Shown here one piece after another: positions 17,798 to 52,611 of a stretch of 64,000 nucleotides of DNA. Below the pieces are notes generated by a model. The model ran no database searches, was not told where the DNA came from, and was given only the letters and a program-made list of their open reading frames with translations. Every line of letters begins with the position of its first letter. The first letter of the stretch is position 1. This DNA is from a virus: IMG/VR virus record IMGVR_UViG_3300045988_139196. One strand, 5' to 3'. A program made the translations under genes and the position numbers.

Positions 17798-17821
17798 GTA
17801 TGCAAAATGTACAAATTTATA

Positions 17822-30029: not shown

Positions 30030-30086
30030 ATTTTTATCTCCTTTTATTTTATCGTTTCGTTATCAATAATGGTTAGTAATAACAAT

Positions 30087-31130
30087 TTACCACTCATCGT
30101 CCTCGTCTGTCAGATCATTGTCTGAAACAGAACCCCAGTCATTATCATCAGAGCCAAAGTCCTTATTTGCATTTTCGGTAGCCTTTGTCTTTGCCACAGC
30201 CTTGTCAATTATCTCCTCCGAATATAGCTCTGTATCTACGCTATCCTTATCAGCTCCGGTAATCAGAAGTATTCTCTTTGTTGGATTGTTTACTCTATCC
30301 ATAGGGTTGCTTTCGCCCCAACCGTCATCATCATCTTCCTCAATTTCTTCAATATCATGTTCTATCACAATATCACCAAAGACCTTGAGGGCTGTATATG
30401 GCTTGAGCTTTCTTAGAGTGCTTGCAAACTTTGATTTACTCTTGTCAATAACGAACTCCGCATCTTCTATAAAATTGTAAGTTACAATCTTTGCAGATAC
30501 AGTGAAGTTACCCTCGTCATTCTTTTCAATGCCCATGAACACGATGACCTGCTCGAAATTGCCAATTACATTGAAGTCCTCTGCATCAAAATCTACGTCC
30601 TTGCAAAGTGAAATCTGTGACGGAACAAATCTGGTCTGGTGTCTATCCTGATAGGTGGAAAACTCATTCTTTCCTCTGACAAATACGGACATACCGTCCT
30701 TTGCATTATCTGCTATGTACTTACAAGCATCATATTCGACAAGTATTTTCTTATCATTTCCTTCCTTGCCCATTGAGTCAACCACCTTTGTCAAGCCAAG
30801 ATTAATTCCAATAGGTCTAAAGTCCTTTTTGTTAAATGTAAATCTGTCAGCCCACTTTACCTTTTCTGTTGTTGTCTTTCTATCCTTACCTTTGCCCTCG
30901 GTCTTAGAAAAATATACTACGTCTCTTTCCATACCATTAAGGTTTATGTATACAGACTTATTCTTATCAATTTCAACTCCTACATTAACCATTCTCATAG
31001 GCTTGCCTGTAGAGGTTGTCAACTCCGTATAGAACTTGTCCTTATCACAGCCTGTCAGCTTACCTCTGATCTGAAAACTGCCCTTTGTTTCCTGAAGTCC
31101 AAGACCCTTATTATTTTTCTTTTCAGCCAT
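30087..31130 (-). CDS. putative single-stranded DNA-binding protein
   Basis: Highly acidic C-terminal tail ..DNDLTDEDDEW, typical of SSB tips. Position in the replication module supports the call. Confidence 0.45.
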   Translation of the reverse strand: MAEKKNNKGLGLQETKGSFQIRGKLTGCDKDKFYTELTTSTGKPMRMVNVGVEIDKNKSVYINLNGMERDVVYFSKTEGKGKDRKTTTEKVKWADRFTFNKKDFRPIGINLGLTKVVDSMGKEGNDKKILVEYDACKYIADNAKDGMSVFVRGKNEFSTYQDRHQTRFVPSQISLCKDVDFDAEDFNVIGNFEQVIVFMGIEKNDEGNFTVSAKIVTYNFIEDAEFVIDKSKSKFASTLRKLKPYTALKVFGDIVIEHDIEEIEEDDDDGWGESNPMDRVNNPTKRILLITGADKDSVDTELYSEEIIDKAVAKTKATENANKDFGSDDNDWGSVSDNDLTDEDDEW

Positions 31131-31167
31131 ATTTTTATCTCCTTTTATTTATCAGATTTTGTTGTCA

Positions 31168-33458: not shown

Positions 33459-33487
33459 TTGACAAGTTAATTGACCCATGTTATAAT
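33459..33487 (+). promoter_or_regulatory. consensus sigma-A-type promoter with extended -10
   Basis: TTGACA (33459-33464), 17 nt, then TGtTATAAT (the -10 is 33482-33487). Confidence 0.75.
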
Positions 33488-33534
33488 AAAACAAAAAGGT
33501 AAACAACTTGAAGTAAACAAAAGGTGGTGAAAAT

Positions 33535-33696
33535 ATGTTAGAAATATTCAATAGTTTACTAAGTGTAATATTGTTTATAGGCAATATGTGTAAACAACTA
33601 ATAATCAACGTTCCATTCTTGGGATTTGTTCTTATTGCCCCGATCGTAACAGGTATCTTTAAATTTATAAACCACAAAGTCAATAAATACATCTAA
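33535..33696 (+). CDS. 53-aa hydrophobic peptide (type I toxin-like or small membrane protein)
   Basis: Unlisted ORF MLEIFNSLLSVILFIGNMCKQLIINVPFLGFVLIAPIVTGIFKFINHKVNKYI. SD AAAGGTGGTGA lies 5 nt upstream. It has its own promoter and terminator and runs opposite to all neighbours. Confidence 0.65.
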   Translation: MLEIFNSLLSVILFIGNMCKQLIINVPFLGFVLIAPIVTGIFKFINHKVNKYI

Positions 33697-33707
33697 TATT
33701 CATTCGT

Positions 33708-33738
33708 AAGCCACTCTTTTGAGTGGCTTATTTTTTTG
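33708..33738 (+). terminator. intrinsic terminator
   Basis: AAGCCACTC-TTTT-GAGTGGCTT followed by ATTTTTTTG. Confidence 0.75.
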
Positions 33739-33739
33739 T

Positions 33740-34009
33740 TTATTCATCGCCACAGACCCAATTTTTCAGTTCGTCTGCTGATTTCTCGCACGTTGGTTTC
33801 ATCTTAAAGAATTTCCAATGTGAACCATAGTCCACCATAAGTTCCATATCTTTAAACCAATAACGCCTATAGCGTTCTACATTACACAATGCGTTGTCTA
33901 TGATGTAATCATTAATAGCCTGATTACATTCTTGTGGAGTTTTGTAACTCCCTATAATCTTTTTGCTTATACTTTTCTCACCGTATTTCATCAAGTAAAG
34001 TTTAATCAT
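33740..34009 (-). CDS. hypothetical protein
   Basis: ORF only. Confidence 0.5.
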   Translation of the reverse strand: MIKLYLMKYGEKSISKKIIGSYKTPQECNQAINDYIIDNALCNVERYRRYWFKDMELMVDYGSHWKFFKMKPTCEKSADELKNWVCGDE

Positions 34010-34073
34010 TTTATCACCACCTTTGTTTTACGTTATTTTATATTTGTAACCTAAAATACGTTACAAAATATTT

Positions 34074-34149
34074 TGGTTGGACTAGCTGGATTCGAACCAG
34101 CGGAATGAGAGAGTCAAAGTCTCTTGCCTTACCACTTGGCTATAGTCCA
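34074..34149 (-). tRNA. tRNA-Gln (UUG), CCA encoded
   Basis: Hand-folded cloverleaf: acceptor TGGACTA/TAGTCCA, anticodon stem AGAGA/TCTCT, loop CTTTGAC, T-arm GGTTCGAATCC. Confidence 0.85.
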
Positions 34150-34262
34150 ATATTAGCACTGCTTTCACAGTGCTTTTTGTTCACCTGCCTTTACAAATCA
34201 GTTTGCAATTTGTAATCAACTAATCGATGAACCGTTATCGTTGTCGGCAACCGTAACCGACT

Positions 34263-34338
34263 TGGTGCAACTTAGGGGACTCGAACCCCTGACCCTTTGA
34301 TTAAAAGTCAAATGCTCTACCAACTGAGCTAAAGTTGC
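34263..34338 (-). tRNA. tRNA-Lys (UUU), CCA encoded
   Basis: Acceptor GCAACTT/AAGTTGC, D-arm AGCTCAGTTGGTAGAGC, loop CTTTTAA, T-arm GGTTCGAGTCC. Confidence 0.85.
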
Positions 34339-34429
34339 AAGTGCAGGTATCACACTACATTCCCTTATGGTGGGATAAGCTCTGTACCTGCTATGCCAAT
34401 TTGCTTTGTACGGCATTGGCAAACTGTAC

Positions 34430-34514
34430 TGGTGTCACTGACGAGACTCGAACTCGCATGGATTTTTCCGAGGAATTTTAAGTTCCTTGTGTATACCTAT
34501 TCCACCACAGTGAC
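34430..34514 (-). tRNA. tRNA-Leu (UAA), long variable arm, CCA encoded
   Basis: Acceptor GTCACTG/CAGTGAC, anticodon stem AGGAA/TTCCT, loop CTTAAAA, a 13-nt variable region, T-arm GAGTTCGAGTCTC. Confidence 0.8.
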
Positions 34515-34532
34515 ACGTCTTATGTTAATTCT

Positions 34533-34589
34533 ACCGTGCTACATTTGAGATTATGATTATAGTATACTACTACTTTTGAGATGTGTCAA
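34533..34589 (-). promoter_or_regulatory. conserved promoter/operator, copy B (drives the tRNA cluster)
   Basis: On the minus strand: TTGACA (34589-34584), 17 nt, TATACT (34566-34561). Boxes TCTCAAAAGTAG (34570-34581) and TCTCAAATGTAG (34539-34550). Confidence 0.7.
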
Positions 34590-34675
34590 CATGTATAGAC
34601 CAAAGTTTACAAAATATTAATAATTATAGATAATAAAAAAACGAGACCTTAACGATCTCGTTTCTGTGTTAAAAT

Positions 34676-35677
34676 TTAGATTTTTGATCTCTTAGAACAT
34701 TGCTCCAAATATATTTTATATTCTTGCACAATACCCTTACGAGTTAAATTATAATCAAAGAAATCTAATGCTTGACTCAAGTTCTTGCCATTCTTACCCC
34801 CAATATCTTCCGTTCTGTACACGTTTAATAAATATTTATTCGCTCTATAAAAGAAACCCGATTTACTGATAATATTTAATTTCAGGTAGATTTTTGGCAC
34901 AATAATTCTCCTAATACTATTAACAACATTAACCGAGCTAGTGCCACTGGATATAGGACGAAATAAATAATCATTTGTGTTATATGCTTTTGATATGTTA
35001 GTATTATTATATGTGGTTACATCTCTCGATTTACCACAGATATTTTGCGGTTCTTTCCCAAAATGCAATGAATAAATATTATTACATAACTCTTTATGCA
35101 GCATATTAGATACATCTGAAAAATATTCAGAGGTTAAATCTATTGTTTGCCTTTTCCCATTCTGCTGTTTTACCCATAGAACCTGCCTATCAATATCGTA
35201 GTCGCCTTTTTTTATTTTAGATAAAGCACTTTTTGGAACTCCAATCCATAATAAATGGCACATTAACTTGATGTAACAGGAATACGCACTTACCTCTACT
35301 GACCATATGTCTATATCAGGGTTATTCATCGCCTTGTCAATAGCATCATTCAGTTCTTCAATATCAGTGATAAAATTTACTTGAAATTGTATATCTTCAA
35401 TATCGCAATTTATATCTGCAAAACTGAGCCAACTCTTTAGCAGCATTTTACTGATCCTAAAACTACCAAGAGTCGAATTATCTTTTAAAAAGTTAGCAAT
35501 ATTATCATGAAGTGTCTTTTCTTCATTGTATTTTTTCAAAAAACTGTTCAAAGTTGATGCTTTTTTCTTTAACGTTGTATCGCTGGTAATATTCGCTTCC
35601 TTTTCGATATATTGATGTATCGAAAATTCCAACTCTTCTTTTGTCATAATAAAACCGTCCTTCCGAATATAATACAT
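34676..35677 (-). CDS. hypothetical 333-aa protein downstream of mazF-like gene
   Basis: ORF only. A faint integrase-like segment (LLWIGVPKSAL..IDR) has no catalytic motifs. Confidence 0.5.
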   Translation of the reverse strand: MYYIRKDGFIMTKEELEFSIHQYIEKEANITSDTTLKKKASTLNSFLKKYNEEKTLHDNIANFLKDNSTLGSFRISKMLLKSWLSFADINCDIEDIQFQVNFITDIEELNDAIDKAMNNPDIDIWSVEVSAYSCYIKLMCHLLWIGVPKSALSKIKKGDYDIDRQVLWVKQQNGKRQTIDLTSEYFSDVSNMLHKELCNNIYSLHFGKEPQNICGKSRDVTTYNNTNISKAYNTNDYLFRPISSGTSSVNVVNSIRRIIVPKIYLKLNIISKSGFFYRANKYLLNVYRTEDIGGKNGKNLSQALDFFDYNLTRKGIVQEYKIYLEQCSKRSKI

Positions 35678-35753
35678 ATAACAAAAAGCAATCTATTATA
35701 GGAAAATATTGTACTAATTATTATATGTATTATACCAAAAAAACGGTTAAAAG

Positions 35754-36179
35754 TCAAGCTAGTTTTTGGTTAGCACTAACATCGTGTGAAGTTAATGCAA
35801 GAGAAATGCAAATTGCTTGAGAGATTCTTCTCATTTCATTCGGAGTTAAGTGACCCAAATAATTAACTATCTTTGTCTTGCTAATCGTAGCAAGTTGTTC
35901 ACATAGAACGACGCTTGTTTTAGCCACTCCACTCGTTTTGTTAAGCAGGACATGAGTAGGGAAGTATGTTTTATTTTTTGAAACATTTGATGTTAGCGGT
36001 GCGACTATTAAACATGGTGAATATTTATTTCCAATGTTATTTTGCACAACTATTGCTGGACGCACCCCTGCCTGTACAGAACCTCCTACATCAGGAAAGC
36101 TTACCAAAATCAAATCTCCTCTTGTTATCTCTCTGTCACATATTTTTGTGTTATTTTCTTTAAAACAAATTTTTTCCAT
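35754..36179 (-). CDS. mazF: MazF/PemK-family endoribonuclease toxin-like protein
   Basis: GDLILVSFP..GVRPAIVVQNN..LIVAPLTS..THV..CEQLATISK pattern. The ATG at 36179 follows AGGAGG. Confidence 0.8.
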   Translation of the reverse strand: MEKICFKENNTKICDREITRGDLILVSFPDVGGSVQAGVRPAIVVQNNIGNKYSPCLIVAPLTSNVSKNKTYFPTHVLLNKTSGVAKTSVVLCEQLATISKTKIVNYLGHLTPNEMRRISQAICISLALTSHDVSANQKLA

Positions 36180-36305
36180 AAACAACGTCCTCCTTTCTTT
36201 TTATTTAACGTTTTGTTGTTGTCGTTGTTTATTTTTCTTCTTTTTCTATATTATAACCGTACAACTTTTAATATTCATTGTATTTTGATGAATATAATGT
36301 TAAAT

Positions 36306-37166
36306 CTATCTTAATATTTCCATTGAGCCTAAATCATTTCCAAACATAGAAATATTAAGCGTTGCTATCTTTTCTCTTTTCTCAAAAATATTACACAAAT
36401 TAATGATAATTGGCTCTATGTAGCTTTTCTTGTAAAACATATCTGCATTAAATTTGCTCAAGCATCTATTCTCTTGCAAACTCCACAAGCCAATAAAACA
36501 TTTCTTATGCAGCTTGTCATACATTATATAGGGTGTAGCGGCTCGATTATGGTCAACAGCCAAAGTTCCGCAATCGAGTATTTCGCATAGCTTATCTATA
36601 TTTAGCAATTCAAAATATAGATATTGCAAGTTACTGATCTGACTCTTATTAAGATTGCCTAGTGCATATGTGTCGATAAGTAATGTAATCTTATCATTCT
36701 CAACGCTTGACCTAGTTTCATCAATATAATCTTCTTTCAGTAATTCCGTAATTTCAACCCACTGCTTTTTCTCTAGCGGAAAGAGTGGCATAGAAGCCAC
36801 TAAACGTTCAGGAACGTATCGGCAGGAAATAGTTAAAGTGACATCATGTATTCCTATTATAATAGTATCTCTTGCAATGCTTATAATAGCTGATGAAAAG
36901 TCATATTCAAGCCGACCAATCGTCATGCAGTAATCAAGTAGAACTAAATCTTGTGTCCTGTCTAGCTCCAAGCATAGAAAACCATGATCTATCCCACAAA
37001 TATCTTGTAAATCCTCAAAACCACCCCTATATTCTTCTTTAATAATTGGATTGTCAGTTAGCTTCAGAGCTGTTCCGTATATTTTGTCATTATTTTTGTT
37101 GTTTGTAAGTATAAATTCGTTATAGCATTTATTGCATACTAATTTTATTAATTCTTGTAAGACCAT
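36306..37166 (-). CDS. hypothetical 286-aa protein (first gene of the mazF-containing cassette)
   Basis: ORF only. It has its own promoter with a palindromic operator. Confidence 0.55.
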   Translation of the reverse strand: MVLQELIKLVCNKCYNEFILTNNKNNDKIYGTALKLTDNPIIKEEYRGGFEDLQDICGIDHGFLCLELDRTQDLVLLDYCMTIGRLEYDFSSAIISIARDTIIIGIHDVTLTISCRYVPERLVASMPLFPLEKKQWVEITELLKEDYIDETRSSVENDKITLLIDTYALGNLNKSQISNLQYLYFELLNIDKLCEILDCGTLAVDHNRAATPYIMYDKLHKKCFIGLWSLQENRCLSKFNADMFYKKSYIEPIIINLCNIFEKREKIATLNISMFGNDLGSMEILR

Positions 37167-37201
37167 TTTTACAACTCCCTTTTAATTTTAATCTTTGTAA
37201 A

Positions 37202-37255
37202 AGAACATCTGTTCTAATATGCTTATACTATACTATAAAACAAATGTTCTGTCAA
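37202..37255 (-). promoter_or_regulatory. promoter with GAAC-N4-GTTC (Cheo/LexA-box-like) palindrome
   Basis: On the minus strand: TTGACA (37255-37250), 17 nt, TATAGT (37232-37227). The perfect palindrome AGAACATCTGTTCT (37202-37215) lies just downstream, and a half-site GAACATTTGTTT lies in the spacer. Confidence 0.6.
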
Positions 37256-37399
37256 GTGATTTATGTCCATTATTTTGTACAGTATATTTTACCACACAAT
37301 TAAGGTAAATATTAGTAAAACTAATTCCCACTGCCTTAATTTTATCACCATTCAATACTTAAATCAATGATAAATTATTCCCAAAAATAAATACACGAT

Positions 37400-37582
37400 T
37401 TAACAGCGACAATAGTTTCTTCGGAAGTTCCATACAATTCCGATATAAACTTCTTTTCGGGTTGATGGGAATGAAAAAGACTCTCCATTCTCATTTACCC
37501 ATATCTCATGCGACCCCTTACCTCTGCGTGAGTATGAAAACCCACGCTCGGCAAGCAGTCTTTTAAATTTGTTTATGTTCAT
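37400..37582 (-). CDS. hicA: HicA-like protein
   Basis: KRLLAERGFSYSRRGKGSHEIWVNENGESFSFP matches the HicA/YcfA pattern. Start MNINKF is at 37582. Confidence 0.65.
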   Translation of the reverse strand: MNINKFKRLLAERGFSYSRRGKGSHEIWVNENGESFSFPSTRKEVYIGIVWNFRRNYCRC

Positions 37583-37649
37583 TTTGTTGTTGTTCCTTTC
37601 TTTTCTAATTTTTGCAAGATTTGAAAACAAAACTTGCATTTTATTTACT

Positions 37650-38426
37650 TTAGTTTGTTGTATTACACTTTCTCAACATTCTAATAATTCCACTCTGACC
37701 CTTTGGCGTTACCATAGGAGTGAGTCCTATTCTGACTGCGCCATTCTGTATGTATGAGCTTTCTTTAAGCTGAAACCATGGCTGAGTGTCTATGTACCTT
37801 TGATAAGGCATATTCTTATGACCGTCCTTACAGCCTAACACTTTCTTTTCTCTCAAAAAATTAAATAGCCTTGTTCTGCCTATCTTTATTCCGTTCTTAG
37901 TTGCCAACTTTGCCATGTCGTTCATTGATATACAATCTTCAGAAGTTTGTATATGACTTGCAAAGTCCACAAGAGGTTTATCCTGCTCTATCTTATTATT
38001 AAGCTGTCTGATCGTTGATAGATTGAGCCTGAACAATTCTCTCGTCTGAGCATCGGCATTTGGCAGATAGGTGTTAATGAACATCTCGTCATTGGCTACA
38101 TAACCGCCTGTCTTGCGTATAGTCGGGAGAACTTCTGAAGTGACCCAACGTTTAAATGTTTTAGCCTTTGGTAGCTTACTTCCGAGAATAAGAGAATACA
38201 AGCCAGACTCATTAATGATAGTCATTGTTTGCTTTCCACCAAGGACGCCCTGAAATGGGGCGTCATTTTTATCATCATCATCAACGTGCCTTGCAATGGC
38301 ATTTCTTGCCTTTGTATACCCCAAAATCTCAGCCACATCTTTTCCGACAAACCAAGGCTCTCCGTCCTTAACTATTGTCCTCACTGTTCCAAATTCCTTG
38401 TTTGTGAATGTTTTAATTCCGTCCAT
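37650..38426 (-). CDS. BRO-N / KilAC-type phage antirepressor
   Basis: FTNKEFGTVRTIVKDGEPWFVGKDVAEILGY (Bro-N) and a C-terminal ..MNDMAKL..GRTRLFNFLREKKVL (KilAC-like). The ATG at 38426 follows AAAGGA. Confidence 0.8.
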   Translation of the reverse strand: MDGIKTFTNKEFGTVRTIVKDGEPWFVGKDVAEILGYTKARNAIARHVDDDDKNDAPFQGVLGGKQTMTIINESGLYSLILGSKLPKAKTFKRWVTSEVLPTIRKTGGYVANDEMFINTYLPNADAQTRELFRLNLSTIRQLNNKIEQDKPLVDFASHIQTSEDCISMNDMAKLATKNGIKIGRTRLFNFLREKKVLGCKDGHKNMPYQRYIDTQPWFQLKESSYIQNGAVRIGLTPMVTPKGQSGIIRMLRKCNTTN

Positions 38427-38517
38427 TTTCTTTGTCCTTTCTGTTCTTAATTTACATTGTTGTTTGAAATTTCCTGCTTGCAAGCATAAAAATACACTAT
38501 TGTCAAAGAAATAGTTC

Positions 38518-38546
38518 TTGACAGCAGTGTTTACTCATGATATAAT
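38518..38546 (+). promoter_or_regulatory. perfect consensus promoter for the antisense sRNA
   Basis: TTGACA (38518-38523), 17 nt, TATAAT (38541-38546). Confidence 0.75.
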
Positions 38547-38552
38547 ATATTT

Positions 38553-38661
38553 ACCAGAAGTAACACTTGTCAAAACACCATTACTATAAGTAATGTGCTT
38601 GTGTACTTTTGTTCACCTGACAACTCTGCTTGACTTTCCACGGACAGCAGAGTTGTTTTTT
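38553..38661 (+). ncRNA. candidate sRNA of about 110 nt, antisense to the RHH-antirepressor intercistronic region
   Basis: Runs from the consensus promoter to the terminator ACAACTCTGCT-loop-AGCAGAGTTGT plus T6 (38620-38661). Internal hairpin CATTACT-ATA-AGTAATG. No SD-preceded ORF. Confidence 0.6.
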
Positions 38662-38842
38662 ATTTGCCAACAATAGTTTTAGTTTCGTTTAGCCTTAGTA
38701 CCAATTCAAACTTGTCATCTACATACATTTTCATGAATGTTTCCAACAAATCGTTCATTTTAATGCCGTTAATAGCACATTTTGACTTGAACTGATTTTG
38801 AATTTCGCTGTCTATTGTTGTTGTGAACGGTTTTCTATCCAT
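38660..38842 (-). CDS. Arc/CopG-like ribbon-helix-helix protein
   Basis: 60 aa with a beta-alpha-alpha pattern: KPFTTTIDSEIQNQFKSKCAINGIKMNDLLETFMKMY. Confidence 0.6.
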   Translation of the reverse strand: MDRKPFTTTIDSEIQNQFKSKCAINGIKMNDLLETFMKMYVDDKFELVLRLNETKTIVGK

Positions 38843-38870
38843 TATTATTTTCTCACCTGCCTTTTATTAT

Positions 38871-38899
38871 AGTATAATTTATTTTTATATGTTTGTCAA
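38871..38899 (-). promoter_or_regulatory. promoter of the RHH-antirepressor operon
   Basis: On the minus strand: TTGACA (38899-38894), 17 nt, TATACT (38876-38871). Confidence 0.65.
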
Positions 38900-39076
38900 C
38901 CATATAAAAATAAAAATCTTTCACAAAATTCTAGCGTATTTTTTGTTGAAATACACAATTTTAGTTTCTGAGATATTACACTTAAACCCTAAATCTTGAT
39001 TTTCAGCCTAAAATATGCTAAAATTTTCTTATAAAAAGTAATTCTAATTAATCTTAGAAATTGGAGGAAATAAAAA

Positions 39077-39736
39077 ATGAGCAAAATAAAATTAATTCTT
39101 ATCGCACTCATGACAATATTAGCATTGTCCTCATGTAATAGTAAAACAACAAGTTCCATATCTGACAGTAATTTCACTACCACTACAACAATTACAACAA
39201 CCACCACTCCCACAACAACTTCTCATACTTTGACAACAACCAAACCATCAACTACCACAACCACTTCCAAATCATCAACTACTACCACAACGACTACAAC
39301 CACAACGACAACTACAACTACCACGCATGATTATAGTTCTGAAATAAGTGCTTTAGAGCAAGAAAATAATCGCCTACAGGGTGAAATCTCCACCTATCAG
39401 AACGAAATAAACAATGAGCAATCTGATATTTCCATCTATGAAATCTATAAATCGGATGCCGAAGATGATGTTGAGGAGGCTAAAATACAGCTTGAAAACG
39501 CCAATAAGAAAATGGTTAAAGTTTATGGTGATGGCGGTTGGACTACAGAAGTTGACTCAGAAGCAGTTTCAAAGGCTCAATCTCACTTAGACGATTGCCA
39601 AAGAGTTGTTGACGTGTACAATGAACTTATATCAGAAAGTCAAAGTAATATTGATTATTATAACACTTGTATATCCAATAATCAAAGTTCCATTGAAAGC
39701 AATAATAGTCTTATAAACGATTATCGTAGCAGATAA
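39077..39736 (+). CDS. lipoprotein with Thr-rich linker and coiled-coil domain
   Basis: Signal peptide with lipobox LALSSC, a poly-T/S linker, and heptad-like QNEINNEQ repeats. SD GGAGGA upstream. Confidence 0.75.
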   Translation: MSKIKLILIALMTILALSSCNSKTTSSISDSNFTTTTTITTTTTPTTTSHTLTTTKPSTTTTTSKSSTTTTTTTTTTTTTTTTHDYSSEISALEQENNRLQGEISTYQNEINNEQSDISIYEIYKSDAEDDVEEAKIQLENANKKMVKVYGDGGWTTEVDSEAVSKAQSHLDDCQRVVDVYNELISESQSNIDYYNTCISNNQSSIESNNSLINDYRSR

Positions 39737-39758
39737 TCATAAAACAGGAGGTAATACC

Positions 39759-40118
39759 ATGAAGAAAATTTGTTCCATTCTTGTGATTGCAATAGGAATA
39801 ACACTATTTGTGATAGGTTATACAACAAAAATTCCAAGCAAAAATTTAACCACATTTTCAATTTTGGAAGGTGACAAGTATAGTGCCATTGACGAATATG
39901 TTGGCGGTGACGCTTACAACTATATCATAGGAGCTTCACTTGTCAGCGGTAAAATAGCCGCTGCGAAAATTGAGAGAGTAATTTTCATATCCACTGGCTC
40001 ATTAATTTTCTCCATTGGCATAATTGGTTTTGCATTTTCATTTAAAACCAAAGAAAAGAAACCTAAAGAAAAAAAAGATGTTGGCGAGCAGGGTGACTTG
40101 TCACAAACTAACGAATAA
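39759..40118 (+). CDS. membrane protein (about 3 TM helices)
   Basis: Hydrophobic segments; SD AGGAGG upstream. Confidence 0.65.
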   Translation: MKKICSILVIAIGITLFVIGYTTKIPSKNLTTFSILEGDKYSAIDEYVGGDAYNYIIGASLVSGKIAAAKIERVIFISTGSLIFSIGIIGFAFSFKTKEKKPKEKKDVGEQGDLSQTNE

Positions 40119-40144
40119 AATTTACAAAGTTCCACAAAATAGTA

Positions 40145-40173
40145 TTGACAAAATGAGTATAGTATGCTATACT
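40145..40173 (+). promoter_or_regulatory. promoter of type III TA locus 1
   Basis: TTGACA, 17 nt, TATACT. Confidence 0.75.
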
Positions 40174-40202
40174 ATAAATGATGAAAGGTAGTTATTTACC
40201 AT

Positions 40203-40292
40203 TTCCGCTTACCAATATGCGGGATATAAATGGTTGGGTTGAAAGTTTTCCGCTTACCAATATGCGGGATATAAATGGTTGGGTTGAAAGTT
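40203..40292 (+). ncRNA. type III antitoxin-like RNA: two perfect 45-nt direct repeats
   Basis: TTCCGCTTACCAATATGCGGGATATAAATGGTTGGGTTGAAAGTT occurs at 40203-40247 and 40248-40292, plus a 2-nt partial third copy. Confidence 0.8.
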
Positions 40293-40294
40293 TT

Positions 40295-40327
40295 AAGCCT
40301 TGCCGTTGTGGCAGGGCTTTTAATTTT
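40295..40327 (+). terminator. intrinsic terminator between RNA repeats and toxin gene
   Basis: AAGCCTTGCC-GTTGT-GGCAGGGCTT followed by TTAATTTT. Confidence 0.75.
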
Positions 40328-40342
40328 GGAAGGTGAAAAATA

Positions 40343-40849
40343 ATGGTTGAACATGGCTTTTATATAATTGATGATTTATTCTTCAAGAAATTTAACGACC
40401 CTTTTCTAAAAGGAAATAAATCCGAAAATCGTCCTCATTACTATTGTTTTAAAGATACTAATGAAGGACTATATTGGATAATTCCTTTAAGCTCACGCAT
40501 TAACAAGTATCAAAAGATAATCAACCAACGCTTAAAAAATCATAAGCCATGTGATATATTACATATTTGTACTCTGAGCAATGGAAAACAAAGTGTATTT
40601 TTAATACAAGATATGTTTCCCATTACTCAAAAATATATCAAGCGTAAATATACCATTAATTCCAATCACCTCATTCTTAAAAATCAAAATGAAATACGAA
40701 TTATTAAACAAAAAGCTGAACGTATTCTTAATCAGATCAATCGAGGTCAACATTGTATTACAACTTGTGCCGATGTATTATCTATCAAAAAAGAACTGCT
40801 GTTAGAACTACAGATAGAAACTCAAACAGCGGACACTCTGACTTGTTGA
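40343..40849 (+). CDS. ToxN/AbiQ-family type III toxin (endoribonuclease-like), copy 1
   Basis: GFYIIDD..F, ENRPHYYCF, GLYWIIPLSSR and FLIQDMFPIT match the ToxN/AbiQ pattern. SD GGAAGGTGA upstream. Confidence 0.8.
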   Translation: MVEHGFYIIDDLFFKKFNDPFLKGNKSENRPHYYCFKDTNEGLYWIIPLSSRINKYQKIINQRLKNHKPCDILHICTLSNGKQSVFLIQDMFPITQKYIKRKYTINSNHLILKNQNEIRIIKQKAERILNQINRGQHCITTCADVLSIKKELLLELQIETQTADTLTC

Positions 40850-40901
40850 TTTGTGTTTTTTGAATTTGCATAAAATTCCATTCAAAACTTTTTGAAAAGC
40901 A

Positions 40902-40930
40902 TTGACAAATTGACAATAGTATGCTATACT
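40902..40930 (+). promoter_or_regulatory. promoter of type III TA locus 2
   Basis: TTGACA, 17 nt, TATACT. The 27 nt at 40918-40944 are identical to 40161-40187. Confidence 0.75.
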
Positions 40931-40962
40931 ATAAATGATGAAAGATTATCTCTATCATCTCT

Positions 40963-41087
40963 AATTTACGCTTCGCAATGTGCGACACAGAAACATTGTA
41001 GATACAATTACGTTTCACAATGTACGGCAAAGTAACATTGTAGTATTCAATTTACGCTTCGCAATGTGCGACACAGAAACATTGTAG
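40963..41087 (+). ncRNA. type III antitoxin-like RNA: about 2.9 copies of a 43-nt repeat
   Basis: Units start at 40963, 41006 and 41049. Units 1 and 3 are identical over 39 nt (AATTTACGCTTCGCAATGTGCGACACAGAAACATTGTAG). Unit 2 is diverged. Confidence 0.8.
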
Positions 41088-41089
41088 TG

Positions 41090-41132
41090 ATGCTGTCATT
41101 TTGGTTAATCTGAAGTGACAGCATATTTTTTT
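41090..41132 (+). terminator. intrinsic terminator between repeats and toxin gene
   Basis: ATGCTGTCA-17 nt-TGACAGCAT followed by ATTTTTTT. Confidence 0.7.
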
Positions 41133-41151
41133 GTATTAGGAGTGTCAAAAT

Positions 41152-41640
41152 ATGACGGAACATGGTATGTACTTTATTACACCCGACTATTATCAACTTA
41201 TTCGAGATGTAGGAGGAACTTGGAATGATTGCAAGGAAAGACCCATTGTTTGTTTGATTAAGTCCACCGAAAATTCCAAATTGTATTGGGCAATACCTGT
41301 AGGCAAAGTAAATCATCGTGACACTAAAGCTATTAATCGTATTTATTCCTATATAAACAAAGATCCAAGAAATATTGCTTCTTGCTTTTATCACATTGGC
41401 AAGACAACCACCAAATCTATTTTCTTTATTAGTGATGCTTTTCCTGTAACAGATGTCTACATAGACAGAATTTATGAGGGCTATGATAAACAACAATATG
41501 TCATTGAAAACAATAATCTTCTGTCTGCTCTGAAATATAAGCTCCAAAGAATTTTAAGTTATGAAAATGCTAATCCAAATTTCTTCCGTCAGCATATTAC
41601 CGATGTTAAAAGAAAACTATTAGACGAAATTAACAATTAA
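41152..41640 (+). CDS. ToxN/AbiQ-family type III toxin, copy 2 (diverged paralogue)
   Basis: GMYFITPDYY, KERPIVCLI, KLYWAIPVGK and FFISDAFPVT. SD AGGAG upstream. Confidence 0.75.
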   Translation: MTEHGMYFITPDYYQLIRDVGGTWNDCKERPIVCLIKSTENSKLYWAIPVGKVNHRDTKAINRIYSYINKDPRNIASCFYHIGKTTTKSIFFISDAFPVTDVYIDRIYEGYDKQQYVIENNNLLSALKYKLQRILSYENANPNFFRQHITDVKRKLLDEINN

Positions 41641-41657
41641 ACAAAAGAGGTATTCTT

Positions 41658-41990
41658 ATGTCCGAAATTAAATCAATAACAGACCAAGAAATATTATCAT
41701 ACTGGAACTCAATTAAATCCGTAAGAGGAGTTGCTATTAAACTCGGTATCTCGTGGCAAAGAGTTATGAAAAGTCTTTCTAGTTTAGGTATTATAGTTAA
41801 TAATACCCACGCCAAAATCACTCAATACCACAAAGAAGGGAAGTCGGCTAATGAGATTGCCAACTTAATGAATATGAACGTTAATGTTGTGAAAGCCTAT
41901 CTCCCACGCAACAGACCTCAATACAAGGTTAATCAATCTAAAAATGCTCTAGCAGTACAGAGGAGTAAAGAACGCCACAAGAAACGCTAA
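41658..41990 (+). CDS. DNA-binding protein with two HTH-like repeats
   Basis: VRGVAIKLGISWQRVMKSL and SANEIANLMNMNVNVVKAYL. Confidence 0.5.
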   Translation: MSEIKSITDQEILSYWNSIKSVRGVAIKLGISWQRVMKSLSSLGIIVNNTHAKITQYHKEGKSANEIANLMNMNVNVVKAYLPRNRPQYKVNQSKNALAVQRSKERHKKR

Positions 41991-42012
41991 AGGGACTTTT
42001 AAAAGTCCCTTT
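41989..42012. terminator. bidirectional hairpin terminator
   Basis: Palindrome AAAGGGACTTTT/AAAAGTCCCTTT between convergent genes, with a T-run on the plus side. Confidence 0.65.
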
Positions 42013-42873
42013 TTATTTTACATACTTATCCACAACTTCCTTGCCCACTTCCATTTTTAACATTTGCTCTTTTACGAGTCTGCTATCGCAGCCACTATAA
42101 TGTTGCTCAGTTATCCTCAAATCAGAATGTCCTAAGCTCTGACAGGCAATACGCAAATCTCTAATAACATCTTCACTGCCTTTTTGAATACAACTAATAT
42201 AAACGGAATGTGTCTGCCTAAAGCTGTGAGTGCTATATTTACCTTCTATGCCATGTTTGGCGGTTATATTCTTTAGAAATGTTGTAACGGAATTAAGTTC
42301 CATAGGAGCTATTCTGAGTAGTCTGCCGTTCCAATCATACTTCTCATTAGTATATATAATTTCTTCTTCTCCGTCCTCATTCAAGAAAATGTCCTCAATA
42401 TACTTCCTCTTACGTTCTCCACTCTGAAAAATATAATCTTCTGGGTCAAGTCCATAATACTTGATTATAAAACTCAGCATTTTCTTCACAGTATCACAAA
42501 GCCATGCCGTTCTCCATTTGTCCGTCTTGTCCTCTTGTAATGTCAAGTAATCTACAATTTTGCCGTTGTTATCGGTTAAATCCTTGACCCTCAAGGTCAT
42601 TATATCTCCGTAACGATAGCCTAAGTTACAAGCAAAAATTATAATATTTGCCTTGAAATATTTTTTGTTCTGAAACAAATCTTCCAAGAGAACATTCAGA
42701 TCATCGGGTCTGAACCAACTCGCAGACTTCTGCTTGCTTTCTTTATGCTTCGTAATAGCATTTCTGTGACCTTTTTTTCGTTTTGGCTGTTTTGTTATCT
42801 GTATTCCTGTCAGAAGTCTATCCGATAAATCGAAAATTTTGCAAGTTTGAGCTGTACTAATATTCATTTTCAT
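42013..42873 (-). CDS. tyrosine recombinase / phage integrase family
   Basis: GYRYGDI (Arg), HSFRQTH (HxxR) and LGHSDLRITEQHY (His..Tyr). Confidence 0.8.
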   Translation of the reverse strand: MKMNISTAQTCKIFDLSDRLLTGIQITKQPKRKKGHRNAITKHKESKQKSASWFRPDDLNVLLEDLFQNKKYFKANIIIFACNLGYRYGDIMTLRVKDLTDNNGKIVDYLTLQEDKTDKWRTAWLCDTVKKMLSFIIKYYGLDPEDYIFQSGERKRKYIEDIFLNEDGEEEIIYTNEKYDWNGRLLRIAPMELNSVTTFLKNITAKHGIEGKYSTHSFRQTHSVYISCIQKGSEDVIRDLRIACQSLGHSDLRITEQHYSGCDSRLVKEQMLKMEVGKEVVDKYVK

Positions 42874-42882
42874 TCACTCCCA

Positions 42883-43143
42883 TCATATACACAATGTAAA
42901 TATTATTCCTGCTATCAACATAACGCTTGTAAAGAGCAAGCCAAAACCACCATAGACAACGTTCTTCACTATCATTCTAACTTTTCTCTGGCGTTCTTCT
43001 CTGAGCCTTTGACGGCGTTTTGCTTTTAAATATGCCTTCCGCATATTATAATCTTGTTCTTCCTCTATCTTCCGTAGCTCTTCTTTACGATCGTTGTCTA
43101 GCATTTTCACAAAAAGTAATGTATTCGTATTTTCATTTTTCAT
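42883..43143 (-). CDS. tail-anchored membrane protein with basic coiled-coil
   Basis: Start MKNENTN follows AGGAGG. C-terminal TM segment GGFGLLFTSVMLIAGIIFTLCI. Confidence 0.55.
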   Translation of the reverse strand: MKNENTNTLLFVKMLDNDRKEELRKIEEEQDYNMRKAYLKAKRRQRLREERQRKVRMIVKNVVYGGFGLLFTSVMLIAGIIFTLCI

Positions 43144-43176
43144 ATTTATTCCTCCTATATTTATTCCTGCATAAAG

Positions 43177-43215
43177 AAATACTCCTATCAATCAATGTGA
43201 TTAATAGGAGTATTT
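43177..43215 (-). terminator. hairpin terminator (12-bp stem)
   Basis: AAATACTCCTAT-15 nt-ATAGGAGTATTT. The U-tract on the minus strand is weak. Confidence 0.45.
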
Positions 43216-43251
43216 ATATTTATTATATTAGTTTTATACACACAATCGCTT

Positions 43252-43806
43252 TCATATTGCAAGTAAACTGTCTATTTCTGCAAGTCTTTTAAGAAGCTTT
43301 TCACGCTCCACTTTTAAGCTTTCCACGTCTATATCAGATACGAGTTTAACGCCCTCGTGGTCTTTGATTTTGCTATAAATCGTTTCAGGAACACCTTTTA
43401 CACGAACGATTGTGTTCTTATCAGCCGCTATTCTAGGACTTTTGGCAGAGCCACCCGAAGTGGCAAAGCCACCGTTTATAAGCATTGCATTGTCGGAGAA
43501 AATAACCTCTCTGTCACGATAAAGTCTTTTCAGAACAACGATTGAGCCAACTCTGATTTCTCCGTCCTCGTAACCCTCAGTATAAGTGTCGAGGTCAAGA
43601 TCTACTGTGACAGTGCTAACCGCACCAAGTTCTCCGCATTCACCATAGCATTCGATGAGTAACGCCTTGACAGCTTCCTTGTTCTCCTCTGGGAAGACCC
43701 AGCAAGGGGCGTTCCACTTGCCCTGTATCTGCTTTGCCCCTGCGACAAAGCTCTTGTTATACGGACTGTTTACCTTGATTGTCTCGTTTTCAACTGTAAC
43801 TTTCAT
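43252..43806 (-). CDS. hypothetical protein, elevated GC
   Basis: ORF only. A hand-counted 60-nt sample (43441-43500) is about 50% GC. Confidence 0.55.
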   Translation of the reverse strand: MKVTVENETIKVNSPYNKSFVAGAKQIQGKWNAPCWVFPEENKEAVKALLIECYGECGELGAVSTVTVDLDLDTYTEGYEDGEIRVGSIVVLKRLYRDREVIFSDNAMLINGGFATSGGSAKSPRIAADKNTIVRVKGVPETIYSKIKDHEGVKLVSDIDVESLKVEREKLLKRLAEIDSLLAI

Positions 43807-52341: not shown

Positions 52342-52611
52342 TTAAGCGTGTAAATACGCTTCTTTTTGGCTCATTTTTGTAACGCTATTGGCAGCGTGCA
52401 AAACGCTTTGCGGGATTCTATAGCCACAAATAACGTATTTGTCAAGGCGTGTGCTATAGCCTATTGAATAGTTCCAGCCGTAAACACCAGCGTTATAATA
52501 ATTAGTGCTATCGGTATAGGCATCAATGCTGCTATCATCAACAAGAATAAGGTCTTGACCGCTGATTATATTTTTTGCATCCATGTTTGTGATTTTTTTT
52601 GATGTATACAT
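52342..52611 (-). CDS. hypothetical protein (first gene of the leftward block)
   Basis: ORF with GGAGG upstream and a long A/C-rich leader. Confidence 0.5.
   Translation of the reverse strand: MYTSKKITNMDAKNIISGQDLILVDDSSIDAYTDSTNYYNAGVYGWNYSIGYSTRLDKYVICGYRIPQSVLHAANSVTKMSQKEAYLHA

Follow-up and report, generated by a model that had tools for sequence, protein, structure and literature searches.

Among SPbeta-like phages of Bacillus, a LexA-controlled antirepressor co-evolves with SroF. SroF binds as a monomer (bioRxiv 10.1101/2025.11.27.690993), and MrpR, in which recombinase catalytic residues are missing (PMC10516654 Table 3), is altered at G136 in the heat-sensitive c2 mutant (PMC10516654). 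As for the type III toxin-antitoxin system CptIN, one report describes plasmid stabilisation (PMC4627078), and phage protection was not seen in the only published test (PMC3401426).

Judged from its sequence, the region at 33459-43215 is not a foreign insertion: it is the lysogeny-control and accessory-gene region of an SPbeta-like gut phage, a distant relative of SPbeta itself. The window referred to below is the whole 64-kb stretch of DNA that was analysed. We consider it probable that this region serves lysogeny management and accessory functions in a temperate phage of the SPbeta type that infects gut Oscillospiraceae, with a swappable immunity cassette at its core. That apparent core function, a repressor matched to its operators, was overlooked by the original prediction, which took the region for an accessory island interrupting the early block.

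Genome position and conservation

Gene order in the window follows that of SPbeta from yorL to yorF, on through yoq/yop and as far as yonO, and thus the region occupies the site of the SPbeta lysogeny-management genes. Like the yop-yoq region, it separates the replication genes from the gene for a YonO-type RNA polymerase, which this phage carries as SPbeta-like phages do. Its location is the same in about 40 metagenomic relatives and in a Hominimerdicola aceti prophage, which indicates that the backbone of the region is conserved. This backbone, composed of p286-MazF-p333, HicA, Ant, HTH and Int, is syntenic in every relative that reaches the region and in a more distant relative carrying allele C. 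Among 19 relatives, cptIN-1, cptIN-2, the ribbon-helix-helix (RHH) gene, the lipoprotein and the membrane protein vary in presence and absence, and the left border is highly variable. In one relative with the same right flank, the DNA on the island side is unrelated. The anticipated prophage state is borne out by a 447 kb H. aceti contig on which phage genes flank int on both sides; homologues, that of p333 among them, lie on a 516 kb contig and on one of 219 kb, lengths that suggest chromosomal integration. No AimR/AimP-like pair was seen within the window.

Nearly every gene originally listed is found in its place, and gene orientation does change repeatedly (Table 1). Strong promoters and terminators of the host type are present in the region, as had been proposed: 11 of the window's 18 near-consensus promoters (at least 11 of 12 positions matching) fall within 33.4-44.3 kb, against 0.6 +/- 0.75 predicted for that interval by a Markov model, and terminator-like hairpins number 14 against 4.8 +/- 2.2 expected. 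Counting all weak promoter matches gives no excess (62 versus 55 +/- 7.5 expected). GC content shows no anomaly across the region, and the supposedly GC-rich gene beside the recombinase is only mildly so (0.39 versus about 0.33).

Table 1. Features of the region and of the two related promoters elsewhere in the window
Feature	Position	Strand	Remarks
Early promoter with paired operators	17730-17797	-	second copy, outside the region; both 13-mers exact
Small unit	33459-33731	+	promoter, 53-aa ORF, terminator hairpin
Promoter of small unit	33459-33487	+	12/12 with TG extension
Hydrophobic ORF	33535-33696	+	53 aa
Terminator hairpin of small unit	33706-33731	+	
p89	33740-34009	-	small early protein; PHROG 1174
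tRNA-Gln(UUG), tRNA-Lys(UUU), tRNA-Leu(UAA)	34074-34514	-	
Early promoter with paired operators	34522-34589	-	TTGACA, ATCTCAAAAGTAG in spacer, TATACT, then ATCTCAAATGTAG 31 nt after first copy
Terminator hairpin	34637-34665	-	3' of p333
p333	34676-35677	-	degenerate tyrosine-recombinase fold, MrpR/YopR/SroF-like
Near-consensus promoter	35729-35757	-	TTGACT-17-TATAAT, TG-extended; within mazF 3' end
MazF/PemK endoribonuclease toxin	35754-36185	-	Pfam 2e-27
p286	36306-37166	-	first gene of cassette operon; narrow family
p286 promoter and LexA-like boxes	37202-37255	-	near-consensus promoter 37255-37227
LexA-like box	37202-37215	-	AGAACAGATGTTCT; just past -10 of p286 promoter
Second LexA-like box	spacer of p286 promoter	-	GAACATTTGTTT
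HicA-like toxin domain	37400-37639	-	GSH motif; marginal, 28.0 bits vs gathering score 27
Antirepressor-type protein	37650-38483	-	Bro-N + KilAC (ANT), Pfam
Back-to-back overlapping near-consensus promoters	38518-38573	both	38518-38546 + (12/12); 38573-38544 - (11/12), drives ant
Arc-like RHH gene	38660-38842	-	PHROG 1e-10; unit 38660-38899, in 7/19 relatives
RHH promoter	38899-38871	-	
Lipoprotein-like protein	39077-39736	+	Thr-rich coiled coil; in 16/19 relatives
Membrane protein	39759-40118	+	119 aa; in 12/19 relatives
cptIN-1 cassette	40145-40849	+	
cptIN-1 promoter	40145-40173	+	
cptIN-1 CptI repeats	40202-40294	+	2.1 x 45 nt
cptIN-1 terminator	40295-40319	+	
cptN of cptIN-1	40343-40849	+	4RMO E 6e-51
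cptIN-2 cassette	40902-41640	+	
cptIN-2 promoter	40902-40930	+	
cptIN-2 repeats	40963-41088	+	2.9 x 44 nt; Rfam RF02920 Fusobacteriales-1
cptIN-2 terminator	41090-41124	+	
Divergent cptN-like gene of cptIN-2	41152-41640	+	
Multi-HTH protein	41658-41990	+	110 aa; weakly Cbp1-like
Bidirectional terminator	41989-42012	both	past HTH gene
Short tyrosine recombinase	42013-42873	-	286 aa; Pfam 1e-10
p102 and p184	42883-43806	-	p102, C-terminal transmembrane segment; p184, PHROG 18108, mildly GC-rich
Early promoter with paired operators	55538-55588	+	third copy, outside the region; 12/12

It is unlikely, in our judgement, that the region is a horizontally acquired moron or defence island within the early region, holding dispensable genes for exclusion or lysogen host fitness. 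Such an origin would fit the strong independent promoters and terminators, the four RNase-toxin genes, the cassettes that come and go among the 19 relatives, the variable left border and the unrelated DNA in the one relative, but the backbone is syntenic out to the allele-C relative, the position is that of SPbeta's own yop-yoq region, GC content is unremarkable and PADLOC recognised none of the region's proteins. In addition, an element of the region co-varies with distant early-promoter operators, which points to a core regulatory function rather than an accessory one. The proposal of an island interrupting the early block thus gives way to SPbeta-like collinearity, whereas that of a variable hotspot holds for individual cassettes and not for the backbone; conservation and synteny in all relatives, the pattern set against an island at the outset, is found in the backbone alone. 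The moron-like character finds support in the toxins and in several variable, self-contained cassettes, but probably does not extend to the leftmost 1.1 kb. A defence or exclusion role for the region is plausible, and the toxins may act in defence or addiction.

A putative immunity cassette

Our main new result is that p286, MazF and p333 appear to form a swappable immunity cassette of 2.5 kb (window 34519-37062). Within it, p333, a distant homologue of MrpR/SroF, the repressor of SPbeta, is a probable integrase-shaped master repressor, predicted to bind DNA and probably expressed from what would be a constitutive promoter at the mazF 3' end. With the more diverse alignment, p333 matches the YopR/MrpR family in hhalign at 89% (E 2.3e-6, 166 columns), and with a shallower alignment at 69% (E 4e-5); its G146 is aligned to MrpR G136. 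Where a recombinase has its catalytic Arg, Glu, His and Arg, p333 carries V/P, A, N and S/K, and so p333 and MrpR are alike in missing the recombinase catalytic residues. The AF2 model is poor (pLDDT 55), and the top eight Foldseek matches to this poor model, at E 0.04-0.3, all belong to the tyrosine recombinases, crystal structure 8bj6 of YopR ranking second. NCBIfam XerA is matched at 1.4e-4. Neither p333 nor 12 family members had a Pfam match at E <= 0.01, the MrpR domains PF22822 and PF22823 included; BLASTP of p333 against YopR was not significant, and searching PDB sequences with a profile found nothing.

The repressor assignment draws on a 13-nt motif whose five exact copies and one single-mismatch copy form three pairs with 31-nt spacing on three early promoters, each with 11 or 12 of the 12 consensus positions matched. 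The element next to p333 shares 90% identity with the 68-nt element at 17730-17797, which tracks the p333 allele in relatives, and the third promoter drives the rightward operon toward the YonO-type RNA polymerase gene. At the site adjoining p333, motif A is present in 12/12 allele A loci and motif B in 23/23 allele B loci, a pattern for which physical linkage could account. At the distal site about 20 kb away, the third promoter at 55538-55588, the motif-allele split is 11/11 versus 0/18 (Fisher 2.9e-8), and the identity of the neighbouring gene there shows no such division by allele. With allele C goes a third motif, AAAAGATGTA, again with 31-nt spacing. The box is non-palindromic, consistent with the monomeric binding mode of SroF. 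HTH110 and RHH60, the other DNA-binding candidates of the region, show no co-variation with the allele. Since the operators track p286 and MazF equally well, sequence alone does not single out the binding protein.

Alternatively, the repeats might be duplicated strong promoters, or might be bound by a different factor, p286 for example, with p333 a decayed integrase relic and the association a product of lineage structure. The missing Pfam match, the poor structure model and the joint co-variation of the three cassette genes would suit this explanation, which we nevertheless find improbable: p333 is kept as an intact ORF with conserved motifs in three alleles sharing 33-55% identity and comes with a near-consensus promoter and a terminator of its own, and three distinct motifs share one 31-nt geometry over the -35/-10 region. 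The independence of flanking gene identity from allele at the distal site and the failure of HTH110 and RHH60 to co-vary argue in the same direction, and p286, as a presumably LexA-repressed gene, is unlikely to be a maintenance repressor.

The operon of p286 and mazF is likely a DNA-damage-inducible toxin operon, its SOS control being suggested by the LexA-like boxes at its promoter. The only GAAC-N4-GTTC in the 64 kb is the box directly past the p286 -10, although one such box per 64 kb, its position aside, has no significance (0.65 expected); it is kept in 33/33 relatives and also in allele C. MazF, for which the ATG at 36179 is the likelier start, resembles the MazF structures of S. aureus and B. 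subtilis (about 45% similar, E 1e-23), and no MazE-like gene lies beside it. We propose p286 as a candidate antirepressor, SOS-induced and allele-specific, and/or a candidate MazF antitoxin because it co-varies with p333, as well as with MazF. At 286 aa it is far larger than Sar (~72 aa), and it has no recognisable fold, AF2 and Foldseek being uninformative.

Under the immunity-cassette reading, p333 made from its own sigma-A promoter would bind as monomers to non-palindromic boxes, arranged as direct pairs 31 nt apart with one box between the -35 and -10 elements and the other just past the -10, on at least three strong early promoters (17.8, 34.6 and 55.5 kb). With the boxes occupied, the tRNA/replication operons running leftward would be shut off, along with the rightward operon toward the phage RNA polymerase. 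DNA damage would switch on p286 and mazF, as their strong promoter is overlapped by LexA-like boxes; p286 could then act as the cognate antirepressor and/or MazF antidote, and MazF may aid cell commitment. The surrounding modules, each independently promoted and terminated, would be expressed in the lysogen by host RNA polymerase: the arc-ant pair, the HicA-like toxin, the lipoprotein, the membrane protein, two CptIN cassettes (each with promoter, tandem RNA antitoxin array, terminator and CptN RNase), the HTH protein and the intact short tyrosine recombinase.

Surrounding modules

At the left edge, the three tRNAs are the first genes past the operator-bearing promoter. Because the leftmost 1.1 kb (tRNAs and p89) is downstream of this repressor-controlled-looking promoter, these genes probably belong to a lytic early operon rather than being lysogen-expressed morons; p89 varies among relatives independently of the immunity allele. 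The 53-aa ORF unit, present in only some relatives, is antisense within the leftward early transcript, and its layout resembles that of an exclusion peptide or a type I toxin.

The HicA-like gene is conserved across all relatives, with no HicB-like gene beside it. The KilAC part of the antirepressor-type protein is 32% identical to SPbeta YoqD, and the arc-ant arrangement resembles P22 immI. The sRNA proposed for this module was not confirmed: a rightward 12/12 promoter runs antisense to the RHH gene, but it has no terminator downstream. The lipoprotein-like and membrane proteins, which gave no informative family match in Pfam, PHROG or NCBIfam, are candidates for surface or exclusion functions.

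Both type III loci are CptIN-like cassettes of RNA antitoxin and toxin, absent from several relatives; in the relatives compared, the repeats and the toxin of cptIN-1 either occur together or are both missing. The 50-nt promoter region of cptIN-2 is 90% identical to that of cptIN-1, and the "Fusobacteriales-1" RNA, listed in Rfam as cis-regulatory, is the repeat array of cptIN-2. The HTH protein is probably co-transcribed with cptN-2. The tyrosine recombinase retains a complete catalytic set (R87, H216/R219, H249, Y), sits inside the prophage, not beside an attachment site, and has no similarity to YopR or YopP.

That the region is a plasmid-prophage maintenance block, with the toxin-antitoxin loci as addiction modules and the recombinase for dimer resolution in the manner of phd/doc and Cre of P1, is very improbable: the complete yet displaced recombinase, the related large clostridial plasmid prophages with type III systems (the C. 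botulinum phage D-1873 group, PMC3401426, and Clostridioides pCD1602_4, which has the same RNA and toxin) and the plasmid stabilisation described for CptIN fit it, but the 447, 516 and 219 kb contigs, the dispensability of the cptIN cassettes in several relatives and a non-exhaustive look in the window in which partition genes were not noticed speak against it. At the right edge, p102 and p184 lie 5' of int in one leftward operon, with promoters at 43846 and 44193.

A conserved, probable lysogeny-control region with exchangeable modules

The best-supported reading of the stretch at 33459-43215 is that it controls lysogeny in an SPbeta-like phage of the gut and is composed of an exchangeable repressor, operator, and SOS cassette together with mobile toxin-antitoxin and surface-protein modules. 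SPbeta-like phages encode the single-subunit RNA polymerase YonO, to which an 891-aa protein encoded far to the right of the stretch is 42-45% identical, and the leftward block at 17.8-31 kb (helicase/exonuclease, split DNA polymerase, RecJ, primase, DnaB, and Sak4) has the gene order of SPbeta yorL to yorG. Because the order of the replication block matches that of SPbeta, the stretch occupies the position of the SPbeta yop-yoq region, home to the arbitrium genes, to the Ant-like YoqD, and to the master repressor YopR/MrpR/SroF in its sro operon.

Megablast of the stretch against GenBank phages returned no relative, and IMG/VR yielded about 40, on contigs of 85-116 kb. A relative in Hominimerdicola aceti Sanger_31 (Oscillospiraceae) lies on a 447 kb contig and is collinear for 10 kb on each side of the recombinase gene. 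The backbone order p333 (candidate repressor), MazF, p286, HicA, Ant (the Bro-N/KilAC protein), HTH protein, and Int (tyrosine recombinase) is kept in every relative that reaches the region, and likewise in a more compact, more distant relative. The original prediction had described an accessory island interrupting the early genes, a description that it took conservation and synteny in all relatives, together with purely lytic expression, to contradict. Since all relatives reaching the region share the backbone and its order, the stretch is not an insertion, and the island reading is partly refuted; its GC content (0.30-0.36 vs a window mean of about 0.33) is not distinct either. Individual cassettes do vary, and the prediction was right about expression of the units by host polymerase, their prophage setting, and the variable toxin cassettes among them, but it missed the apparent core function.

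Variation is found at the level of single units. Among the 19 relatives spanning ant to the HTH gene, 11 have only cptIN-2 (the second of two type III toxin-antitoxin loci), five have both loci, two have only cptIN-1, and one has neither; seven carry the Arc-like RHH gene, 16 the lipoprotein gene, and 12 the gene for the membrane protein. Genes lying between p206 and the tRNAs are highly variable, and contig ends among relatives are inconsistent with one another. When all proteins of the stretch were compared by tblastn with SPbeta yonO-yorK, the KilAC domain of Ant was the sole match. Prophage moron and defense hotspots, such as those of P2/P4-like phages, resemble the stretch in that self-contained promoter/terminator cassettes vary between otherwise near-identical phages. 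Here, by contrast, single cassettes vary within a conserved regulatory backbone, and a PADLOC search of ten proteins of the stretch gave no meaningful match and no known defense system.

Two relatives illustrate other arrangements. In L107, which has allele C of the p333 cassette, the region is far more compact (Int, CptN2-like, Ant-like, HicA, XRE, p286, MazF, and p333), with a 64-aa XRE-type HTH gene between hicA and p286 (4065-4259; ENA ERZ27274832 k119_72603). In L042, at 10500-20507 of a 272 kb contig (IMGVR_UViG_3300045988_153522), the right-flank genes p169 to p193 are retained at 92-98% amino acid identity; the island side consists of 10 kb of unrelated genes, including those for 819-aa and 498-aa proteins without a functional assignment and a beta-solenoid protein, and no tRNAs.

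Gene content and transcription units

Nearly every item of the predicted gene inventory was recovered by ORF mapping, a tRNA scan, and domain searches (see table). The claim that almost every unit has its own promoter and terminator depends on how promoters are counted. Near-consensus sites are strongly enriched: of the 18 promoters in the window that match at least 11 of 12 consensus positions, 11 fall in 33.4-44.3 kb (17% of the sequence), where a Markov model of that stretch predicts 0.6 +/- 0.75. Terminator-like hairpins are enriched as well (14 vs 4.8 +/- 2.2 expected), but with weak sigma-A matches included there is no excess (62 vs 55 +/- 7.5 expected). An sRNA proposed within the RHH/antirepressor module found no substantiation in the promoter and terminator evidence.

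The HicA assignment is marginal; the copy in a relative is listed, weakly, as HicA_toxin, and no candidate HicB antitoxin was found between 37166 and 37400 or upstream. The unit of the small hydrophobic ORF lies antisense within the leftward early transcript and has a type I toxin-like layout; SPbeta carries bsrG/SR4 and yonT/SR6.

Features of the lysogeny-control region and of related sites elsewhere in the window
Feature	Position	Strand	Evidence or remark
Operator promoter	17797-17769	-	
Split DNA polymerase (PHROG 405)	20034-24009	-	ORFs 22849-24009 and 20034-22109, ~740 nt apart
Exact 26-nt repeat	30024-30049 and 31125-31150		
53-aa hydrophobic ORF	within 33459-33731	+	Perfect promoter and own terminator
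tRNAs (three)			tRNA scan
Swapped segment	34519-37062		DNA comparison of relatives
Operator promoter	34589-34561	-	Right after p333 terminator; drives tRNAs and leftward early/replication genes
p333	34676-35677	-	Candidate repressor
PemK/MazF toxin	35754-36185	-	Pfam 2e-27
p286-mazF gap	36186-36305	-	120 nt, A-rich, untranslated
p286	36306-37166	-	Candidate antirepressor
LexA-like box	37202-37215		AGAACAGATGTTCT
HicA domain			Marginal: 28.0 bits vs Pfam gathering score 27
Bro-N/KilAC antirepressor and Arc-like RHH protein			Domain searches
Thr-rich lipoprotein-like protein and small membrane protein			
cptIN-1	40145-40849		Tandem repeats and toxin
cptIN-1 hairpin and T-run	40295-40319		11 bp; between repeats and toxin
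cptIN-2	40902-41640		Tandem repeats and toxin
HTH110 (HTH protein)	41658-41990		
Int (tyrosine recombinase)	42013-42873		Pfam 1e-10
Nearly ORF-free stretch	52600-55500		~3 kb; GC skew sign change
Small RHH-like ORF	53359-53559		Sole ORF of the nearly ORF-free stretch
Operator promoter	55538-55566	+	Drives rightward operon towards RNA polymerase gene
Facing promoters	55538-55637	+ and -	12/12 (+) and 11/12 (-) consensus positions
Two tandem 34-nt elements	55749-55826	+	Upstream of first rightward gene (55905)
YonO-like RNA polymerase	60159-62834		891 aa

A candidate repressor related to MrpR/YopR/SroF

In the relatives, p333, MazF, and p286 come linked, in two versions: allele A, with at least 86-95% identity to the window, and allele B, with 33%, 62%, and 36% identity for p333, MazF, and p286, respectively. 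p333 has no Pfam, PHROG, or PADLOC match and no homologue in GenBank phages, and p333 with 12 family members gave no Pfam match at E <= 0.01, the MrpR domains PF22822 and PF22823 included, both of which are carried by all YopR homologues. The family is rare, numbering 15 clusters in a set of 1.84 billion representatives. Searches of PDB sequences, whether by profile or by single sequence, gave nothing significant for p333, p286, or Int.

Several lines of evidence nevertheless tie p333 to the integrase-fold repressors MrpR/YopR/SroF as a probable remote homologue. Aligned with the YopR family by hhalign, it scored 69% (E 4e-5), and a more diverse p333 alignment raised this to 89.1% (E 2.3e-6) with 166 collinear columns over the catalytic-like (CAT-like) domain. 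In this register, p333 G146-V-P, with V147/P148 at the Arg-I position, falls on MrpR G136-V137-S138, where G136 is the residue altered in the heat-inducible c2 allele (PMC10516654). Similarly, N268...S271/K272 at the His and Arg-II positions falls on MrpR N254...V257/R258, and the Glu position reads A. Thus, by this register, the active-site residues absent from MrpR are absent from p333 as well. The NCBIfam XerA model matches p333 residues 24-196 (1.4e-4). An AF2 model (pLDDT 55) is confident for an N-terminal four-helix domain and poor for the remainder; with this poor model, the best 8 Foldseek matches are all tyrosine recombinases, the YopR crystal structure being second (E 0.04-0.35).

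The closest known system is that of SPbeta and phi3T, in which the sro (yopM-R) operon, the integrase-fold repressor, SPBRE boxes, and the LexA-controlled Sar have been described (PMC10516654; PMC8612738; bioRxiv 10.1101/2025.11.27.690993). The two share the genome position between replication genes and yonO; a repressor (here a candidate) of equal length and two-domain layout with loss at the same catalytic positions; a repeated non-palindromic box in several early promoters; repressors that are allele-specific, each matched by a partner gene that co-varies and is preceded by an SOS box (here a putative one); and a nearby Ant (YoqD-like) gene. They differ in that the homology of p333 is visible by profile-profile comparison only, the Pfam MrpR models being without a match; that the boxes here are paired at a fixed 31-nt spacing; that the partner here is the upstream 286-aa p286, of unrecognized fold, whereas that of SPbeta is a downstream 72-aa protein; that a MazF gene lies inside the cassette; that AimR/AimP were not found within the window; and that the host is a Clostridia gut anaerobe rather than Bacillus. 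Integrase-fold master repressors of the MrpR/SroF type are known so far from Bacillus SPbeta-like phages only. If confirmed, a highly divergent, unannotated family would do the same job in abundant human-gut Oscillospiraceae phages.

Predicted operators follow the p333 allele

Motif A, the 13-mer ATCTCAAAAGTAG, has five exact copies in the window and a sixth with one mismatch. They are arranged as three pairs at 31-nt spacing, each on a near-consensus promoter (operator promoters in the table), with one copy filling the -35/-10 spacer and the other 3' of the -10. MrpR, for comparison, binds a repeated element in about 10 SPbeta promoters, including those before replication genes and beside yonO.

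The motif changes with the cassette. At the proximal site, beside p333, motif A occurs at 12/12 allele-A loci and 0/23 allele-B loci, and motif B (ATTAAACGAGTA within TTGACAACTATTAA..., also 31 nt apart) at 23/23 allele-B loci and 0/12 allele-A loci. Some 20 kb from p333, the distal site provides the stronger test of this association: motif A is found in 11/11 allele-A contigs and motif B in 18/18 allele-B contigs (Fisher 2.9e-8). Because the identity of the adjacent gene is not sorted by allele (83-99% for A, 90-98% for B), the distal association is not simple clonal structure. At the 17.8 kb site the motif matches the allele in 4/4 cases for A and 4/6 for B. Allele C, whose p333 is 55% identical, has a third repeat, AAAAGATGTA, with the same 31-nt spacing at the equivalent promoter. 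If confirmed, these would be three exchangeable immunity types with predicted operators readable straight from DNA; a cultured lysogen, H. aceti Sanger_31, exists.

Neither HTH110 nor the RHH protein tracks the allele. As p286 and MazF both do, we propose p333 as the binding protein from its fold and homology. SroF binds as a monomer that encircles DNA (bioRxiv 10.1101/2025.11.27.690993), and the non-palindromic boxes would be compatible with SroF-like binding of this kind by p333.

At the rightward operator promoter, two near-consensus promoters face each other and the second operator copy lies between their start sites, so one repressor-bound site could block both directions. Slightly downstream are two tandem 34-nt elements, CACTTTGACCTACACTTTT[A/G]GTATACAGATTGCA, of which relatives have differing versions; the pair may thus serve as another variable site of regulation or as a promoter for the phage RNAP.

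A probable SOS input and a MazF within the proposed immunity cassette

The promoter shared by p286 and mazF is probably under SOS (LexA) control. The LexA-like box is the sole GAAC-N4-GTTC in the 64 kb and lies directly 3' of the -10 of the near-consensus promoter preceding p286, the spacer of which also holds GAACATTTGTTT in allele A. The box is kept in 33/33 relatives across both alleles, with differing neighboring bases, and its counterpart in allele C is AGAACAAATGTTCT. Bacillus SPbeta-like phages are induced via the LexA-controlled antirepressor Sar, which coevolves with SroF, and by analogy p286 would be the best candidate for a cognate antirepressor. From its position upstream of mazF, p286 is also a candidate MazF antitoxin. 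Its AF2 model has a pLDDT of 62, and the Foldseek matches are meaningless (probability <= 0.2). As another potential Sar-like antirepressor we considered p89, one ORF downstream of the repressor, and rejected it because p89 variants do not track the p333 allele.

The toxin itself is well supported. It matches the S. aureus and B. subtilis MazF structures at E 1e-23 with the catalytic Arg and Thr kept, and the alignment with S. aureus MazF retains the GVRP and ...T motifs. A MazE/PemI antitoxin was sought beside mazF, with no small ORF found in the 120-nt upstream gap and no MazE or AbrB-like match for p286. A strong ribosome-binding site in that gap favors ATG 36179 over TTG 36185 as the mazF start. 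The sequence UACAU shows no bias in either direction in phage transcripts or p333 mRNA, an uninformative result; this MazF may recognize another site.

That the cassette includes a MazF of the B. subtilis type is intriguing, given that arbitrium phages work through the MazF of their host (PMC10769878). The parallel is that this MazF belongs to the B. subtilis EndoA/S. aureus MazF subfamily and is physically tied to an SPbeta-like repressor operon; the difference is that the toxin here is phage-encoded, and no MazE, AimX, or YosL homologue was recognized. Phage MazF behind an SOS box in a repressor cassette, if confirmed, would offer a handle on the unexplained role of MazF in SPbeta-type decisions. 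A bolder proposal, which we think rather improbable, is that p286-mazF-p333 forms a complete, exchangeable lysis-lysogeny switch for which the phage supplies its own MazF in cis, an RNase that Bacillus arbitrium phages take from their host. Cleavage of LexA would set free both MazF and p286, the latter as an allele-specific antirepressor; together they would disable the integrase-fold repressor and remodel the transcriptome. Were this true, SroF-type repressor logic and its link to MazF would be of ancient origin and common among Bacillota phages far outside Bacillus.

Two predicted type III toxin-antitoxin cassettes

Both type III loci have the canonical layout of promoter, tandem repeats, terminator, and toxin gene, and their 50-nt promoter regions are 90% identical. 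The cptIN-1 toxin matches CptN (PDB 4RMO) over residues 1-150 (phmmer, E 6e-51). Its promoter matches 11/12 consensus positions with a TG extension, and its 45-nt repeats (2.1 copies, 100% identical) are found if and only if the toxin is found among the 19 relatives. CptIN loci have 40-48 nt tandem repeats in 1.9-3.4 copies directly upstream of the toxin (PMC3401426, Table 2), and the repeats here resemble those of the Eubacterium rectale system, in which two genetic repeats give rise to a 45-nt pseudoknot (PMC4627078). By these sequence features, cptIN-1 is predicted to be a bona fide CptIN.

The cptIN-2 toxin is placed in a putative divergent CptN subfamily: it reaches E 1.2e-15 with the NCBIfam CptIN model (57.7 bits, below the cut-off of 90) and E 1e-4 with 4RMO, and is about 30% identical to CptN-1. 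Upstream of the toxin are 44-nt repeats (2.9 copies), then a 15-bp hairpin and T-run. The repeats correspond over the full length to Rfam RF02920, Fusobacteriales-1 (88.7 bits vs a gathering threshold of 52.1), which Rfam lists as cis-regulatory. In Clostridioides phage pCD1602_4, too, the RNA directly precedes a toxin, one with 58.6% identity to that of locus 2; it accompanies the toxin in the window, H. aceti, and pCD1602_4 and is absent from relatives without the toxin. RF02920 is thus most likely the antitoxin repeat array of this CptN subfamily, which, if confirmed, affects genome annotation of Fusobacteriales-1. In folding of a single CptI repeat, z-scores were not significant, as expected of pseudoknots, and the terminators alone stood out.

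The loci share the canonical architecture of E. rectale CptIN (4RMO; PMC3401426; PMC4627078). They differ from it in being phage-carried, in standing in tandem with near-identical promoters, and, for locus 2, in a toxin below the NCBIfam cut-off and an RNA listed by Rfam as cis-regulatory. All 33 cptIN loci of a 2012 census were chromosomal (PMC3401426), a 2025 survey reported no phage type III systems besides one toxIN and its own tenpIN hits, and GenBank phage records gave no canonical CptN. If confirmed, our findings mean that CptIN systems travel on phages as mobile cassettes.

Recombinase, antirepressor, and observations elsewhere in the window

Int has the full R-K-H-R-H-Y set; against XerD, R87, H216/R219, and H249 are aligned and the Tyr is one position off. 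The Int gene of the H. aceti prophage has 10 kb of collinear phage genes on each side, which places it away from a prophage end beside attP. We also considered Int as an MrpR-like repressor, and dropped the idea because BLASTP against SPbeta YopR and YopP finds nothing and the catalytic residues are intact.

The antirepressor module recalls arc-ant of the P22 immI region. An Arc-like RHH gene lies directly upstream of the antirepressor gene, each has its own promoter, and an opposing promoter lies between them. Unlike in P22, there is no evident sar-like antisense RNA, since the opposing promoter fails to cover the ribosome-binding site of ant, and the RHH gene is missing in 12/19 relatives.

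Three observations concern other parts of the window. The split in the DNA polymerase gene looks like an intron or homing-element interruption. The nearly ORF-free stretch left of the rightward operon could be an origin, attP, or packaging region. Finally, two neighboring early genes, the Sak4-like gene and p347, share the exact 26-nt repeat over their ribosome-binding sites and starts.
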